Positions 54,629 through 60,949 of a stretch of DNA of 64,000 bases are shown piece by piece (position 1 is the first letter of the stretch; every line of letters starts with the position of its first letter). The stretch comes from Candidatus Omnitrophota bacterium (GTDB lineage Bacteria > Omnitrophota > Gorgyraeia > Duberdicusellales > 4484-171): contig JBDRAN010000059.1 of the NCBI GenBank assembly GCA_043823745.1, forward strand, positions 9,105 through 73,104, read 5' to 3'. The translations under genes and the position numbers were made by a program. A model generated the notes under the pieces. That model ran no database searches and was not told the origin of the DNA. It saw only the letters and a program-made list of their open reading frames with translations.

Positions 54629-55828
54629 ATGAGTGGATCGATAAAAGTTATTTTTGATAAGTGTATCGGCTGCGGATTGTGCGTGAAGGTTTGTCCTTTT
54701 GACGCAATCAGTATTGTCAATAAAAAAGCAGTGATTGATCTTGCCAAATGTACGCTCTGCGGCGCCTGCAAAGAAGCGTGCAAATTTGACGCTATTGTTA
54801 TTACCAAACCCCAAGGTGCTAAGAAAGATCTTTCCGGCTACAAAGATATTTGGGTATTCATAGAGCGTGAGCACGGCGTTATTGCGGGTGTTTCCTATGA
54901 GCTGTTAGGTAAAGCCGTCGAGCTCGCGGCTGACCGGCATTCAAAGGTAGTGGCGGTGTATTTGGGCCACAACATCAAGCGAAACGCCGAGGTACTTATC
55001 CATCGTGGTGCGGATAAAGTAATTGTTGTAGACGCTCCCGGACTTGATAATTTTATTTCTGAAAATTACGCGAACGTTATCAGCCGGCTCATTAGCACGT
55101 ATAAACCGGAGGTTTTTCTTGCAGGCGCAACCACCTGCGGCCGTTCTGTTGTATCGCGTATCGCGGTGACTATTCAGACAGGCCTGACGGCTGACTGCAC
55201 CGGCCTTGATATTGATAAAGAGAAAGGGCTTCTGATTCAAACCAGGCCCGCGTTCGGGGGTAATATAATGGCTCAGATTATTACACCGAATTACCGACCA
55301 CAAATGGCGACGGTGCGGCATAAAGTCATGCAGGAGTTTGCCCCGGATGCTACGCGCGTCGGCCAGATCATCGAGGAAAGCCTAGACGATGCCTGCATAG
55401 ATACGAGAGTTCGATTTATCGAATTTCTCAAGGAAGAGGCTGCCAAAATAAACCTGGCGGACGCCGATATTATTGTTTCAGGAGGTAGGGGCTTACAGGA
55501 TGCTAAGAACTTCCAGCTTATTCGAGATCTTGCCGATGCTATCGGTGGCGCCGTTGGATCATCGCGTTCTGCGGTTGATAGCGGTTGGATTTCTTATTCT
55601 CACCAGGTAGGCCAGACCGGCAGAACCGTCGCGCCGAAGCTTTATATAGCCTGCGGTATATCAGGTCAGATCCAGCATCTTGTGGGGATGCAATCGTCAA
55701 AAACTATCGTTGCTATCAACAAAGATCCTGACGCACCTATTTTTAGAGTTGCTGATTACGGTATCGTAGGAGATCTTTTCCAGATTGTCCCCCTTTTAAC
55801 GAAGGCGTTGAGAAACAGTAATAAATAA
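54629..55828 (+). CDS. etfA: Electron transfer flavoprotein alpha subunit with an N-terminal 2x[4Fe-4S] ferredoxin domain (FixB-type)
   Basis: CIGCGLCVKVCP and CTLCGACKEAC clusters, followed by the EtfA FAD-binding domain (SGGRGL...AVGSSR). Confidence 0.85.
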   Translation: MSGSIKVIFDKCIGCGLCVKVCPFDAISIVNKKAVIDLAKCTLCGACKEACKFDAIVITKPQGAKKDLSGYKDIWVFIEREHGVIAGVSYELLGKAVELAADRHSKVVAVYLGHNIKRNAEVLIHRGADKVIVVDAPGLDNFISENYANVISRLISTYKPEVFLAGATTCGRSVVSRIAVTIQTGLTADCTGLDIDKEKGLLIQTRPAFGGNIMAQIITPNYRPQMATVRHKVMQEFAPDATRVGQIIEESLDDACIDTRVRFIEFLKEEAAKINLADADIIVSGGRGLQDAKNFQLIRDLADAIGGAVGSSRSAVDSGWISYSHQVGQTGRTVAPKLYIACGISGQIQHLVGMQSSKTIVAINKDPDAPIFRVADYGIVGDLFQIVPLLTKALRNSNK

Positions 55829-55830
55829 TT

Positions 55831-55917
55831 GCTGCAAGCCGCAGGCTTCAAGCTAAAAAAGTAAAACCGGTAGCGGCGTCTATAGCCTGTAGCATGCAGC
55901 TTGTAGCTTGAAGCAGA
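55831..55917. repeat. ~85-bp intergenic element GCTGCAAGCCGCAGGCTTCAAGCT...GCATGCAGCTTGTAGCTTGAAGCA with internal dyad symmetry (GGCTTCAAGC/GCTTGAAGC). A second copy lies at 62639-62706.
   Basis: Both copies lie immediately upstream of a start codon (smc and queA). Confidence 0.55.
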
Positions 55918-55924
55918 CAACAAT

Positions 55925-58900
55925 ATGTATCTAAAAGAACTCGATATTTTTGGTTTCAAATCATTCCCCGAGAAAACCAATCTTAAATTTGAACCGGGCA
56001 TTACCGTCGTCGTGGGACCAAACGGGTGCGGAAAATGCCTGCATCCTGAATCGCTTGTTTGCTTGGCCGATGGGACGATCGTTAAAATCGGAGAGCTGGT
56101 AGAACGCAATATCGCCTCTTCGAAAAAAGTTGCTCTCTTTGATGATGGCTTGAGTAGTCTTGAGAATGAGCACAACCTTAAAGTTTTTTCACTCAATCCG
56201 CAAACGCAAAAAATAGAAAAAAGAAGAATCGCTGCATTTGTCAAAAGAAAATCACCCCCCTTCCTTCTTAAGATTAGAACACACAAAGGCGAGGAGGTGA
56301 TAACTACTCATTATCACCCCTTCTTTACCGTAGAGAACGGTTCTCTTAAAGTATTAACCGCTGGAGAGCTCAAGGAGGGTATAAAGATTGCGCTTCCGAG
56401 GGTATTAAACGTCGATACCGGCACGTGCCGATTGGATGCAACTGATGTTTTAAGAAAGTTTTCCGTTGATGACCATGTTTATGTGCCATATTCAGGGCGT
56501 CTCAAAGAACTGATTTATTCGCAGAAAGAATTATGCGGCAGCTGGGAGAACTTGACTACGCAGCGAGCGCTTTCATCGGGGAGCATCCTAGGGGTGCAAA
56601 GCTCTCAGGCGGTCAACGCCGCACAGGTAACAGCTGTGTTAGATAGTGATGCACTTAGTGAGTTGTCGCCTACTTCACTTAAGTCGCGCTCGAATGGTTA
56701 TGTCGGGATTCCTTCTTGTTTAGATAAAAATCTAGCTCGTTTTCTCGGGTACATTATTTCCGAAGGAAGAACGACGTTATCTAATCAAGTTTGGTTTGTT
56801 AACGAAGATGAAGATGTTATCAGCGATTTTTGTGCTGTGAGCCAGAAAGTTTTTTCAGTAGCACCGAAGGTATTTTCATATAAAGAGCGGGCAAAGGATG
56901 TCATTATATTTTCCTCCGTTCTCTGTAAATTTCTCGATCGAGTATTCTCGGTGCGGCATAACGGGGTATCGCACGAGAAAGTTATTCCTGCGCAAATTTT
57001 CTCTGCTCCCCGGGAAGTCGTGTCAGAATTCATTTCTGCTCTTTTTGAAGGCGACGCATATCTTAAGAATAAATTCGAACGCAATCGGAATAACTATTAT
57101 ATAGAATATGCGACCGCCAGCCGCCAATTAGCCTATGGTCTTTCGACGCTCCTTTTACGATTCGGCGTACAGGCGGTGATTAGGGAAAAACGCAAATGCG
57201 CGGCCAATGCTGTCAAAAAGATTAAGCGTACCTATTATTCAGTTTATATTTATGGTATTGATAACCTTCATAAAATAACCCCTCATCTTCATTTTGTAGG
57301 CAGAAAGCGAAAAGTCTTAGATGCAATGAAAGCGTTGTCAACAAAATCAAACCCTAATTATGACGTTGTTCCCGGCATCCACGCGCTCATGAAACAATTC
57401 ACGCAGTCCTCGGGGGTGTCTATTAAAAGGGAGAAACGGCATTGCCCTAGGCTTGCTGCGTATTACGAGGGTGCCTGTCTTCCCTCACGTCAGGGAATCT
57501 TGGAAGTTGTTGATTACCTGCAGCGGGTTTCCGTTTCATGCGCCGCCGGCCTCTCAGAGCGCCTGAATGCATTTGCTATGTCTGATATTTATTGGGATGA
57601 GATTGTGTGTATCGAAAAAATCGCGCGAGACACGGAATGGGTCTATGATTTATGTGTTGAAGATACTCACAATTTCGTGGCAAACAATTTTATCGTCCAT
57701 AACAGTAATGTTTTTGACGGTATCAAGTGGGCGCTCGGCGAGCAAAGCCCAAAGTCTTTGCGCGGTTCAAAAATGGAAGATATTATTTTCAACGGTACCG
57801 ATCACTACCCTGCCTTGAACTACGCGGAAGTCACGCTTACGTTTCTTAACGACGATAAATACCTGCCGATTGACTATAAAGAAGTCTCGATTACCCGTAA
57901 GCTTTACCGTTCCGGTGAAAGCGAATACTACATCAATAAAAATATCGTACGCCTCAAAGATATTGAAGAGCTGTTCATGGGAACCGGTATCGGGGAATCA
58001 ACATACTCTTTTATTGAGCAGGGTAAGATCGAGATTTTCTTAAGCTATAAGCCGGAGGACAAGCGGCTCATCTTTGATGAGGCAAGCGGCATTGTCAAAT
58101 ACAAGGAACGTAAAAAAGAAACGATGCGCAGGCTTGAGGAAGTCGACGAGAATCTTCTGCGCCTTGAGGATATCATTTCCGAAGTAAAACGCCAGACACG
58201 CTACCTTGAGCGCCAGGTTGAGAAGGCGCGTAAATATCGCGAAACGCAAGACGCGCTCCTTGCCGTTGAAAAAAAGATCGCGACAATCCAGTCAAAAGAG
58301 GTGCAAGAAAAAATCGACAAGCACCTTGAAGAATTAGGCGTCCTGAAGGCGTGCGAGGAAGAAAAAAGCTTGATTCTTGAGGAAGCAAAAAATGAGTACG
58401 AGGTACGCGGCAGCCGCGTAAAAGAGGTGCGGAGCGCCCTTGAAGCGGTCAACACTGCGTTTATCGCTCTCAATGCAGATATTACCGCGGCGCAGAATAA
58501 TATTAAATTTTATGAGCAGATGATCGTTGAGTTGCGCGAGCGAAACGGCACCATTGAACAGGCAAGCGCGGAGCTTACTGAGCGCTATGCGATTCAGGAA
58601 AAGCGCCTAACCGAGGAACGCGTGCGTTTTGAGGGTATTGATGCAGGCGTGGCGGCGGCAGAGCGCGAGATCGTCGCACTCAGCACCGAAAAAGACGAGC
58701 TTAAATCTCAAAGCCATGATGCATCAAAAAATATAGAGCTCGAGAAACTTTCCATACTTCAGCATGAGAGCAAAAAGGCTAATTTTAACAATAGTCTTAT
58801 TGAAATTCAGACGAACCTCGCGGGATTAGTAAACAGGAAAAAACGCCTGTTGCTTGATCGGGGGCGACTTGAGGCTCTGCGTTCCGAAAGCGAAAGCGCG

Positions 58901-60949
58901 CAAAGTGCGAAAGAGGAGGAGGTAACCTCCCGTGCGGCGGAGCTTGAGAGTTTTAAACAACGCAAGAATGTGCTGGTTCTTCGAGAACAGGAATTGTCGC
59001 GCAGTAAAGAAACCTTAAAAGAAAACCTTATCGAAAAAGACAAGGAATTGTTCGAGTTGCAATCGTATTATGAATTTTTAAAAGATCTGCACACTAAATA
59101 CGAAACGTTTTCGGTCACCAAAAAGATAACCATTATTTTTGATGAAGAGCCTGTTAAGATAAATAAACTGGTCGCTTCGCTCTCCGGTGTCCAGTTTAGC
59201 CGTGAGGGGGCAGTTTATAAGGCGGTTGTGGAGGCTAAAGTCGTATCGCTGGAGGAGAACCAGCTCCAAGACCGTATTGCCCAGGCAAAGCAGGTTATGA
59301 GCCAGACGCGTGAGAGCCTTGAGCAGCTTGCGCAGCAAAAAGAAGAGGTAAGCCAGGAAGCTGTTGTTGAGGATCGTCAGATTGAGGAGGCGGAAGGTAT
59401 TTTGCGTGATCGTTTCCAGGAAAAAGAAGCGTTACGCAGGGAGTGCGCGCGCCTTGACGAGGAGTATGTGCTCCTTGAAGACGAGACGCAGACGACTGCA
59501 AGCGATATTGCTTCTTTTGAAGCTAATCAAAAGGATTTTGAAATCCAACTCGTGCACGTAGAACAGGCGCTGGCCACGGTCCAGGAGAGCCTTGGGAGCC
59601 TTCATCAGTGTGTCGCTACCTGCGCCCAGCGTGCCAATGCTATCGATATCGAAAATACCAAGAAAGAAGCGTTAAAGGATTCATTACGTAAAGAGAAAGA
59701 AACGCTCCAGTCAAAAATAATTTTCCTTGAGGAAGAAAAAGACAACATTACGAAAAATATTGAAACGCTGGCCCGAGAAAAAGAGGAAAACGGTAAGCGA
59801 GCACAGACGTTGGCTGCTGATATCGAGAACGGCAGTGTCAGCATTGGTAATTTTGAGCGCACCATGGCGGAGCAAACTCTGAGCAAGGCAACGCTTGAGC
59901 AGGAAGAGGTGACGCTGGGCGAGCGGCTTGAGGCTGTCAGGCAAAAAGAACAGGCTTTTGAGAAAGAGTGCGAAGCCCTGCGGGGTGAGCTTTACAATAA
60001 GAAGCTCGAAATCCAGAGCTTTGAATATGAAAAAGGGAAGATAACTGATTATCTGGCGCAGGTGTATCATGTTACGTTCGAGCCTTTGCTGCCTGGGGAA
60101 ACAAGTCAGCCTCTTGGTGTCTATATCGATGAGCGCAATATGTTGAAGAAGAAAGTAGAGGCATTGGGTGAGGTTAATCTTGTCGCGATCGAGGAGTTCG
60201 AGGAGCTTAAAAAACGCGATGATTTTTTGGTAAAACAAAAAGATGATTTGATCACGTCAAAAGAGAATTTGAAAAAAGCGATCCAGAAGATCAATAAGAC
60301 ATCCAAAGAGCTCTTTCTGGATACCTTCACCAAGGTGCAGGAAGAGTTTAACAAGAATTTCAGGTTTTTATTCGGCGGCGGCAAAGCGCAGCTTCTTTTG
60401 CTTGATCCGGAAAATGTTTTGGAGTCAGGTGTGGAAATAGAAGTGCAGCCTCCAGGGAAAAAATTACAAAATGTTTCGCTCCTCTCGGGAGGAGAGAAGG
60501 CGCTTACGGCAATTTCGCTGATATTCGCTATTTTCAGGGTTCGGCCATCACCGATATGCGTTGTTGATGAGATCGACGCGCCGCTCGATGAGGCTAACGT
60601 CGATCGTTTTAACCTTATGCTTAAAGAATTTGTCCATTTTTCGCAATTTATCGTAATTACCCATAATAAAAAGACCATGAGTAACGCCGATGTGCTCTAT
60701 GGCGTGACCATGCAGGAGAAAGGCATTTCTAAGCTTGTTTCGGTTAAGTTTGCCGAGCGCGAACGAGCCAAACATCCGCTTGTTTCGCCGCCGCGCGTTC
60801 CTACCATCGAAGATCTGGAAAAAGAAGCGCTGGAAGAGAAAACCACCGTAGATGAATCCAGCGACGATACCTCAAAAGACTCGCAGCATCGAGAGACCAT
60901 CGCGCAAGAACCCCAAGCAGCAAATCCCCACGATACTCCAGCGCAATAG
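55925..60949 (+). CDS. smc: Chromosome segregation protein SMC, interrupted in-frame by an intein in the Walker-A loop. The exteins total ~1118 aa.
   Basis: N-extein ends GPNGCGK and C-extein resumes SNVFDGIKWALGEQS (canonical GPNGSGKSN(V/I)DA...LGE). Long coiled coils, a hinge, a C-terminal LSGGEK signature motif and Walker B CVVDEIDAPLDE. Confidence 0.85.
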   Translation: MYLKELDIFGFKSFPEKTNLKFEPGITVVVGPNGCGKCLHPESLVCLADGTIVKIGELVERNIASSKKVALFDDGLSSLENEHNLKVFSLNPQTQKIEKRRIAAFVKRKSPPFLLKIRTHKGEEVITTHYHPFFTVENGSLKVLTAGELKEGIKIALPRVLNVDTGTCRLDATDVLRKFSVDDHVYVPYSGRLKELIYSQKELCGSWENLTTQRALSSGSILGVQSSQAVNAAQVTAVLDSDALSELSPTSLKSRSNGYVGIPSCLDKNLARFLGYIISEGRTTLSNQVWFVNEDEDVISDFCAVSQKVFSVAPKVFSYKERAKDVIIFSSVLCKFLDRVFSVRHNGVSHEKVIPAQIFSAPREVVSEFISALFEGDAYLKNKFERNRNNYYIEYATASRQLAYGLSTLLLRFGVQAVIREKRKCAANAVKKIKRTYYSVYIYGIDNLHKITPHLHFVGRKRKVLDAMKALSTKSNPNYDVVPGIHALMKQFTQSSGVSIKREKRHCPRLAAYYEGACLPSRQGILEVVDYLQRVSVSCAAGLSERLNAFAMSDIYWDEIVCIEKIARDTEWVYDLCVEDTHNFVANNFIVHNSNVFDGIKWALGEQSPKSLRGSKMEDIIFNGTDHYPALNYAEVTLTFLNDDKYLPIDYKEVSITRKLYRSGESEYYINKNIVRLKDIEELFMGTGIGESTYSFIEQGKIEIFLSYKPEDKRLIFDEASGIVKYKERKKETMRRLEEVDENLLRLEDIISEVKRQTRYLERQVEKARKYRETQDALLAVEKKIATIQSKEVQEKIDKHLEELGVLKACEEEKSLILEEAKNEYEVRGSRVKEVRSALEAVNTAFIALNADITAAQNNIKFYEQMIVELRERNGTIEQASAELTERYAIQEKRLTEERVRFEGIDAGVAAAEREIVALSTEKDELKSQSHDASKNIELEKLSILQHESKKANFNNSLIEIQTNLAGLVNRKKRLLLDRGRLEALRSESESAQSAKEEEVTSRAAELESFKQRKNVLVLREQELSRSKETLKENLIEKDKELFELQSYYEFLKDLHTKYETFSVTKKITIIFDEEPVKINKLVASLSGVQFSREGAVYKAVVEAKVVSLEENQLQDRIAQAKQVMSQTRESLEQLAQQKEEVSQEAVVEDRQIEEAEGILRDRFQEKEALRRECARLDEEYVLLEDETQTTASDIASFEANQKDFEIQLVHVEQALATVQESLGSLHQCVATCAQRANAIDIENTKKEALKDSLRKEKETLQSKIIFLEEEKDNITKNIETLAREKEENGKRAQTLAADIENGSVSIGNFERTMAEQTLSKATLEQEEVTLGERLEAVRQKEQAFEKECEALRGELYNKKLEIQSFEYEKGKITDYLAQVYHVTFEPLLPGETSQPLGVYIDERNMLKKKVEALGEVNLVAIEEFEELKKRDDFLVKQKDDLITSKENLKKAIQKINKTSKELFLDTFTKVQEEFNKNFRFLFGGGKAQLLLLDPENVLESGVEIEVQPPGKKLQNVSLLSGGEKALTAISLIFAIFRVRPSPICVVDEIDAPLDEANVDRFNLMLKEFVHFSQFIVITHNKKTMSNADVLYGVTMQEKGISKLVSVKFAERERAKHPLVSPPRVPTIEDLEKEALEEKTTVDESSDDTSKDSQHRETIAQEPQAANPHDTPAQ
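56036..57703 (+). mobile_element. Intein (556 aa) with a LAGLIDADG-type homing endonuclease domain, inserted after the P-loop Lys of SMC
   Basis: Starts with Cys (CLHPESLVCLADGTIVKIGELV, block A). Block B TxxH (ITTHYHPFF). Endonuclease motifs LARFLGYIISEGR and FISALFEGDAYL. Ends ...NNFIVHN, followed by the +1 Ser. Confidence 0.75.

Follow-up and report, generated by a model that had tools for sequence, protein, structure and literature searches.

That inteins occupy the P-loops of ATPases in replication and repair is an acknowledged pattern in the text of a 2016 survey, which places site a of MCM likewise in the P-loop and reports SMC (structural maintenance of chromosomes) inteins in archaea (Novikova, Topilina and Belfort, Mol Biol Evol; PMC4760082). 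As far as the text of that survey goes, SMC is outside the top 15 bacterial intein hosts, and SMC inteins are named for archaea only. Full-text literature searches returned no description of bacterial SMC inteins. Here an intein is described in the smc gene at 55925..60949 of a 64,000-nucleotide stretch of DNA from a Candidatus Omnitrophota bacterium (assembly GCA_043823745.1, contig JBDRAN010000059.1, positions 9,105 to 73,104 of the forward strand). The whole stretch is called the window, and coordinates are given along it. The insert is very probably a canonical class 1 intein with a LAGLIDADG homing endonuclease, placed in frame in the Walker A motif of Smc, and mobile, judging from its sequence and that of its relatives. 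It represents a bacterial Smc intein allele that is well populated, ordinary in anatomy and, within the scope of these searches, undescribed. Smc, the main bacterial chromosome-organising ATPase, thereby joins the essential P-loop ATPases with an intein exactly in Walker A. Existing knowledge of inteins or of Smc is not changed.

Archaeal SMC inteins share the host family, and a member of the present family occurs at the same Lys/Ser site in a Micrarchaeota archaeon (L078). The present family is overwhelmingly bacterial, in contrast to the SMC inteins named in the text of PMC4760082, a comparison that concerns the hosts. The best sequence match to a solved Hint domain is that of the Pyrococcus MCM/CDC21-1 inteins (6rpq, 6rpp), with E 4e-25 and 34–37% identity over about 125 residues. 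Their host is unrelated (an AAA+ helicase) and the crystal forms are minimised, whereas the SMC intein has a full endonuclease and two extra helical modules. Outside the SMC family, the closest relatives are DnaB inteins, from both P-loop and H4 sites (about 25–31% identity, E down to 1e-17), along with TFIIB, RuvB and CDC48 inteins. Some DnaB inteins are found at ...RPSMGK/C...HN/T in the DnaB P-loop (slashes mark splice junctions here and below), and they have class 1 chemistry and the LAGLIDADG endonuclease in common with the SMC intein. However, their host is different, their relationship to the SMC intein is far more distant than that within the SMC family (38–62%), and conditional splicing has been demonstrated for the mycobacterial DnaB inteins (PMC6195587, PMC7360933). 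An origin by hopping from one P-loop to another was considered and not retained, as no specific donor can be named and the nearest DnaB relatives occupy both P-loop and non-P-loop sites.

Insertion of the intein in the Walker A motif

The gene is an uninterrupted open reading frame encoding a precursor of 1674 residues, of which 1118 remain when the 556 residues of the intein are removed in silico. Its parts are the following.

55925..60949, + strand: smc with in-frame intein, 1674 codons plus stop, matched by TIGR02168 and SMC_N
55925..56035, + strand: N-extein, residues 1–37, aligned to residues 1–37 of Bacillus subtilis Smc
56015-56035, + strand: first part of Walker A, GPNGCGK, at the end of the N-extein
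56036..57703, + strand: intein of 556 residues (residues 38–593), class 1, with nested LAGLIDADG homing endonuclease
56036..56401, + strand: N-terminal Hint subdomain, intein residues 1–122, matching the PhoCDC21-1 intein 6rpq over residues 7–122
56036-56038, + strand: block A, Cys1, codon TGC
56288-56326, + strand: block B, GEEVITTHYHPFF
56306-56317, + strand: Thr91-x-x-His94 (THYH) of block B
56402..56710, + strand: helical module, intein residues 123–225, six helices in the AlphaFold2 model, with Q191 and K216 invariant
56711..57295, + strand: LAGLIDADG endonuclease core, intein residues 226–420 (AlphaFold2), aligned to the VMA intein endonuclease 7qss
56732-56767, + strand: LAGLIDADG motif 1, LARFLGYIISEG, with Glu243
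57029-57058, + strand: LAGLIDADG motif 2, FISALFEGDA, with Asp340
57296..57580, + strand: second helical module, intein residues 421–515, helices from AlphaFold2, with NPNxD(L/V)(I/V)P ... PKLAAYYE..C.PSR.G conserved family-wide
57581..57703, + strand: C-terminal Hint subdomain, intein residues 516–556, TIGR01443 above cut-off
57638-57682, + strand: block F, WVYDLCVEDTHNFVA, with Asp538 and His545
57683-57703, + strand: block G, NNFIVHN, with His555 and Asn556
57704..60949, + strand: C-extein, beginning at the +1 Ser that completes Walker A, read directly from the sequence
57704-57706, + strand: +1 Ser (Ser594), codon AGT, start of the C-extein

The identity of the host is given by the NCBI equivalog model for bacterial Smc, TIGR02168 (SMC_prok_B), which scores 812.9 bits over the whole protein against a cut-off of 567. 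Pfam SMC_N, also above its cut-off, scores 211 bits over residues 594–1603. The intein starts with CLHPESLV at residue 38 and ends with NNFIVHN at residue 593, and the C-extein resumes at residue 594. The insertion point lies between Lys37 and Ser38 of the uninterrupted Walker A motif, GPNGCGK/SN (GxxGxGK/S). When the intein is removed, residues 1–220 within the N-terminal 229 residues of the spliced protein align to residues 1–220 of the B. subtilis Smc head (5xg3) without a gap (E 2e-75). The first-pass annotation, made from the letters alone, had proposed a 556-residue insert within Walker A of an Smc. The host, the coordinates (exact to the base), the seamless junction with respect to intein-free Smc, and the positions of Cys1, TxxH, the two LAGLIDADG motifs and HN/S are all borne out by these analyses.

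A search for intein blocks, which the same annotation had recommended, gave scores that are far beyond chance with every curated model. Pfam Intein_splicing (PF14890) reaches 95.3 bits for a cut-off of 35.8, LAGLIDADG_3 (PF14528) 43.7–54.8 bits for a cut-off of 22.5, TIGR01445 (intein_Nterm) 59.6 bits for a cut-off of 24.5, and TIGR01443 (intein_Cterm) 26.7 bits for a cut-off of 15.6.

Fold and conserved residues of the intein

An AlphaFold2 model of the intein, built on 16 family members, has a predicted local distance difference test score (pLDDT) of 91.2 and a predicted template-modelling score (pTM) of 0.91. It consists of a split Hint domain into which the endonuclease is nested. In the order given by DSSP, the endonuclease core is a pseudo-dimer that repeats the succession alpha-beta-beta-alpha-beta-beta-alpha twice. 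The two LAGLIDADG helices comprise residues 231–243 (LARFLGYIISE243-G) and 326–340 (FISALFEGD340-A), and each ends with an acidic residue. Nine residues are the same in 78/78 family members: Cys1, Thr91, His94, Glu243, Asp340, Asp538, His545, His555 and Asn556.

The best Foldseek matches of the model are the inteins TliVMA (7qss), PI-TkoII (2cw7), PI-PfuI (1dq3) and PI-SceI, with E from 3e-28 to 7e-20 and target-normalised TM-scores of 0.62–0.81. Further structural matches are I-Tsp061I, I-DmoI and I-OnuI. The architecture of the four inteins is shared, with a split Hint domain, a nested two-repeat LAGLIDADG endonuclease and accessory domains. In contrast, sequence identity is 14–21% and the hosts are V-ATPase, DNA polymerase and ribonucleotide reductase. 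The helical modules 123–225 and 421–515 of the SMC intein have no assigned counterpart in solved inteins. Module 123–225, which is deleted in three mini-inteins of the family (P0030, P0090 and P0141), possibly serves DNA recognition. Module 421–515 (57296-57580) is retained in the endonuclease-less P0030 and P0090, which suggests that its structural ties are to the splicing domain, or that it serves some separate role, and that it does not belong to the endonuclease.

Predicted splicing and homing

Intein splicing follows an established chemistry, in which formation of a thioester, attack by the +1 residue, cyclisation of an asparagine and an acyl shift succeed one another. The 1674-residue precursor would be devoid of a working ATP site. 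Since 556 residues part the P-loop Lys from its Ser, it should not bind nucleotide until excision, on the model of known P-loop ATPases. The Hint domain would then form a thioester at Cys1, which would be attacked by the +1 Ser. Cyclisation of Asn556, aided by His555, would free the intein, and the acyl shift would restore a normal peptide bond. The expected products are an Smc of 1118 residues with an intact Walker A motif and a free endonuclease of 556 residues. Either the free protein or the precursor would cut an intein-less smc at the joined P-loop sequence, and repair from the occupied allele would copy the intein into the cut gene.

Members of the family and their hosts

With the intein alone as query, about 30 proteins were retrieved in which GPNGxGK is followed by the same intein, and each of them is an N-terminal fragment of Smc. 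Several of these genes are labelled in public annotation as LAGLIDADG endonucleases or inteins. Pipelines often annotate them as 'LAGLIDADG family homing endonuclease' or as 'AAA family ATPase, partial', which conceals smc in genome surveys. A scan of GTDB with one genome per species yielded 226 confirmed relatives, the best 80 of which were kept for analysis. An intact intein reading frame of 540–568 residues is present at GPNGxGK/C...HN/SN in 77 of these 80 loci, the other three being cut by contig ends. The same intein therefore occupies the same Smc site in at least 77 species-representative genomes. The +1 residue is Ser in all 77 loci, and Thr in the 288-residue mini-intein P0030, which was found with the intein query.

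The hosts are mostly Omnitrophota, some of them labelled 'uncultured Planctomycetia'. The others are Rokubacteria/Methylomirabilota, Acidobacteriota, Chloroflexota, Armatimonadota, one Patescibacteria bin and the Micrarchaeota archaeon. In IMG/VR, no SMC-type intein was found among viruses, the only matches being distant LAGLIDADG relatives of 25–34% identity. Large and well conserved, the family displays a complete succession of decay stages, from inteins with an endonuclease down to minis. It may be used to follow the spread of inteins in uncultivated lineages, as a marker of lineage and transfer, and as a source of new splicing domains for protein engineering.

A few members depart from the common arrangement. 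P0018 (Rokubacteria, 638 residues) runs through an Smc N-extein and an intein of the SMC type as far as ...HNFVAG, and directly after this continues as GyrB Toprim sequence (...DGSHIRTLLLTFF...IAQPPLYK). This chimera reflects misassembly between two inteins of the same genome, or else a true rearrangement. P0029 (Omnitrophica, 406 residues) has an additional in-frame HTH_17 segment (an excisionase-type helix-turn-helix), about 65 residues long, upstream of the Smc N-extein and intein, which shifts the start of the P-loop from residue 31 to residue 97. In acidobacterial Smc heads (L058 and others), a long acidic stretch of low complexity is inserted some 80 residues past Walker A. At the intein-bearing Omnitrophota locus L021 (5890-8493), the smc frame meets a stop after 310 residues of the spliced protein, which reflects either a pseudogene or a sequencing frameshift.

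Empty sites and probable mobility of the intein

The 120 closest orthologues, retrieved with the spliced Smc as query, are 50–63% identical to it and all belong to Omnitrophota. An uninterrupted GPNGCGKSN is found in 113 of them, so that empty sites exist among close relatives, as the first-pass annotation had asked to be checked. The same site is occupied in the other seven (about 6%). Four of these have full-length inteins of 554–556 residues, two have endonuclease-less remnants (P0090, 313 residues; P0141, 268 residues), and in the last (P0154) a truncated gene call hides the length of the intein, although LAGLIDADG_3 still scores. The first-pass annotation had regarded an intein in bacterial Smc as uncommon. 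This holds for the literature and for the frequency among the nearest orthologues, but not in the sense of rare, given the number of species-representative genomes and the several phyla concerned.

When the spliced proteins are placed in a neighbour-joining tree, occupied alleles turn up in scattered positions, each with empty sisters next to it, and the window Smc and P0060 are the only ones that pair. The closest contrast is provided by two loci that share the gene order EtfB-EtfA-Smc-GGDEF-QueA of the window, one empty (L081, protein P0120) and one occupied (L083, P0145). Their spliced smc genes, both of 3183 nucleotides, are 92.9% identical in nucleotides and 94.1% in amino acids, and the sole structural difference is an exact insert of 1668 bp between the AAG (Lys) and Ser codons. 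The empty-site DNA of L081 reads GGTCCTAATGGTTGCGGTAAG/TCCAATGTCTTTGATGCTGTT, and the empty junction reconstructed from the window, in its AGY version, reads GGACCAAACGGGTGCGGAAAA/AGTAATGTTTTTGACGGTATC. For the strain of the window itself, the empty alleles that a metagenome scan yielded were all more distant, with at most 85% identity in the head.

The codon of the +1 Ser differs between occupied and empty sites. It is AGY (AGC or AGT) at 69/77 occupied sites, versus 34/69 empty sites with Ser (Fisher p = 8e-8, kinship ignored) and 11/29 among the closest empty ones. A switch between TCN and AGY requires two base changes. With the two codon types thus set apart, the bias is what one would see if homing co-converts the flanking DNA, or if the endonuclease prefers certain targets. 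Homing would also explain the patchy spread of the intein, and the endonuclease-less derivatives of 268–313 residues at the same site (P0030, P0090 and P0141) are the decay that the homing cycle predicts.

The intein tree, also obtained by neighbour-joining, mostly tracks the host phyla, with exceptions. Patescibacteria and archaeal copies fall among the Omnitrophota copies, Chloroflexota and Armatimonadota copies among the acidobacterial ones, and some Omnitrophota copies on the side of Rokubacteria and Acidobacteria. Over aligned positions, intein identity is clearly above that of the extein heads at the Micrarchaeota locus only (43% versus 32.5%). The acidobacterial inteins had also seemed closer to that of the window than their Smc heads are, but this was ruled out, as the low-complexity insertion in these heads had produced the difference.

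Several points weigh against a mobile, splicing intein. Splicing and cleavage are predicted from residues and distribution. The trees are without support values, and the codon test carries no phylogenetic correction. As the intein tree follows phyla, much of the history could be vertical descent plus loss, and wrong binning of metagenome-assembled genomes could account for some of the cross-phylum cases. The window copy itself appears to be old and not obviously mobile now, because its guanine-plus-cytosine content (0.439) is near that of the host gene (0.467), and because its nearest relatives match it at only 59–62% identity, while their Smc heads are 82–90% identical.

It is thus possible, though the less expected case, that the intein can splice but is no longer mobile, with an endonuclease that is inactive or has exhausted its targets. 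It would then persist only because exact removal is rare and inexact removal would destroy Walker A. The composition of the intein, which resembles that of the host gene, is consistent with this, as is the tree that mostly follows phyla. The window Smc and its nearest relative, P0060, are sisters with inteins diverged to 60% identity, which fits long vertical co-descent, and the endonuclease-less forms show that the endonuclease does decay in this family. However, the window copy has kept its catalytic acids and an intact endonuclease-core fold, and both acids are present in 78/78 full-length members. A loss of mobility also accounts poorly for alleles that are 93% identical in DNA and differ by the presence of the intein, and for occupied alleles scattered among empty sisters.

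The junction cysteines

The first-pass annotation had raised the possibility of a post-translational switch. The junction GPNG-C-G-K/C does form a CxxC motif, in which a disulfide between Cys(-3) and Cys(+1) of Cys-Gly-Lys-Cys could block the first step of splicing, so that Smc would mature only under reducing conditions. Compaction and segregation of the chromosome would then take place only in a reducing cytoplasm, and the intein would be a conditional-splicing switch, not a purely selfish element. The hosts are mostly anaerobic and very small bacteria. A Cys is found at -3 in 64/77 occupied sites. In the Pyrococcus abyssi MoaA intein, a disulfide that joins Cys1 to a Cys of the N-extein is documented to block splicing (PMC10663303). 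The engineered CPGC redox trap (Callahan et al. 2011, as reviewed in PMC10663303) works likewise, and in both the N-extein Cys reportedly lies near Cys1, as in C-G-K/C. P-loop inteins are argued, in the text of PMC4760082, to be selectively retained.

By contrast with the MoaA and CPGC cases, the extein Cys of the SMC intein belongs to the ordinary Smc P-loop, with or without intein. A Cys at -3 is as frequent without the intein, in 66/82 empty metagenomic alleles and in 113/113 nearest empty orthologues. As this residue is common in intein-free Smc, it is a feature of the host P-loop and not an adaptation to the intein, and the CxxC motif is a by-product of the landing site. Moreover, Ser, Val, Thr or Ala stands at -3 in 13/77 occupied sites, and about 94% of the close relatives manage without the intein. 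A domesticated redox switch, which is proposed by analogy, is therefore unlikely. The suggestion of a switch found no specific support beyond a CxxC that the host sequence supplies anyway.

Integrity of the host protein

The ABC-type head of Smc is complete, with the Walker A, Q-loop, LSGGE, Walker B and H-loop motifs all located. Those of the C-extein were placed by reading the sequence.

58010-58027, + strand: Q-loop, FIEQGK
60482-60505, + strand: signature, LSGGE
60554-60589, + strand: Walker B, VVDEID
60653-60670, + strand: H-loop, THN

A dead insertion, in which the intein could not splice and smc would be inactivated or its product non-functional, is very improbable. Nothing specific favours it. 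One relative, L021, has a stop in its C-extein, and smc can be dispensable in some bacteria (PMC11898615). The reading frame is uninterrupted over 5 kb, the splicing residues are all intact and invariant in the family, the four C-extein motifs are preserved, and the extein head is 82–90% identical to those of close relatives. An assembly artefact joining unrelated sequences can practically be dismissed since, although P0018, in which an SMC intein is joined to GyrB sequence, illustrates that artefacts occur near inteins, the extein-intein junctions are reproduced at 99.9% identity in an independent assembly (GCA_018827245.1, contig L164) and the same in-frame junctions are found in 77 independent genomes.

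A reduced apex in place of the hinge

The SMC hinge is regarded as the end of the complex that provides dimerisation and handles DNA. In the window Smc, its position is taken by a short conserved segment.

59066..59272, + strand: apex segment of about 69 residues in the hinge position (spliced residues ~492–560), without hinge match, modelled by AlphaFold2 with low confidence

SMC_hinge (PF06470) gave no match, even at E<=10, with the window protein, with its central 202 residues or with the intein-free orthologue P0061, and the centre of the protein matched no solved hinge structure in the PDB. As positive controls, the intein-bearing Smc of L004 and L032 (Omnitrophota) and of L039 (Rokubacteria) scored 82–87 bits with SMC_hinge. 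L015 and L035 gave no match to this model. The window Smc is about 130 residues shorter than usual Smc. As the controls score while neither PF06470 nor a PDB hinge matches the window protein, the latter is best regarded as an Smc orthologue with a reduced apex, and not as a canonical Smc. The nearest Omnitrophota orthologues (about 113, of ~1060 residues) are likewise without a detectable hinge domain.

The AlphaFold2 model of spliced residues 450–630 shows the antiparallel coiled-coil arms as two unbroken helices, 53 and 75 residues long, that flank the apex. The apex itself is a beta-rich loop of low confidence (pLDDT 55–77) joining these two long helices. Its conserved pattern is Y.FLKDL..KY.TFS..KK.T..FDEEP..INKLV.SL... 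A profile of the segment retrieved only 8 cluster representatives among 1.84 billion proteins, which indicates that it is lineage-specific. This hinge-less Smc clade may interest those who study the mechanism of SMC complexes more than the intein does.

Genomic neighbourhood and other observations

The smc gene is preceded by genes for EtfB and a ferredoxin-fused EtfA, and followed by genes for a GGDEF protein and QueA. These are housekeeping genes, and their order is kept in relatives. ScpA and ScpB were not found among the ten annotated genes neighbouring smc. A search of the window for RNA features gave no Rfam match and no tRNA, and a profile of the family run against its six-frame translation revealed no further intein.

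The closest database entries to the window Smc are from metagenome-assembled genomes of Candidatus Omnitrophota. The 1674-residue product has no exact protein record, but a fragment that is 99.9% identical is on record from L164. This 6.2-kb contig of a sister strain is 99.8–99.9% identical to the window, except that the last bases of etfA and the intergenic sequence upstream of smc are unrelated in the two (window 55789-55923, 135 nucleotides; L164 3582-3763, 182 nucleotides). The flanks of this replaced segment are 99.8–99.9% identical. Both versions have a long imperfect inverted repeat of their own. The window contains no second copy of its hairpin, whose folding energy is unremarkable (z = -1.6).

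At its C terminus, Smc ends with a tail of about 60 residues (~60760-60946) that is rich in Pro, Glu and Asp (RAKHPLVSPPRVPTIEDLEKE...PHDTPAQ) and is missing from the 1060-residue orthologues.

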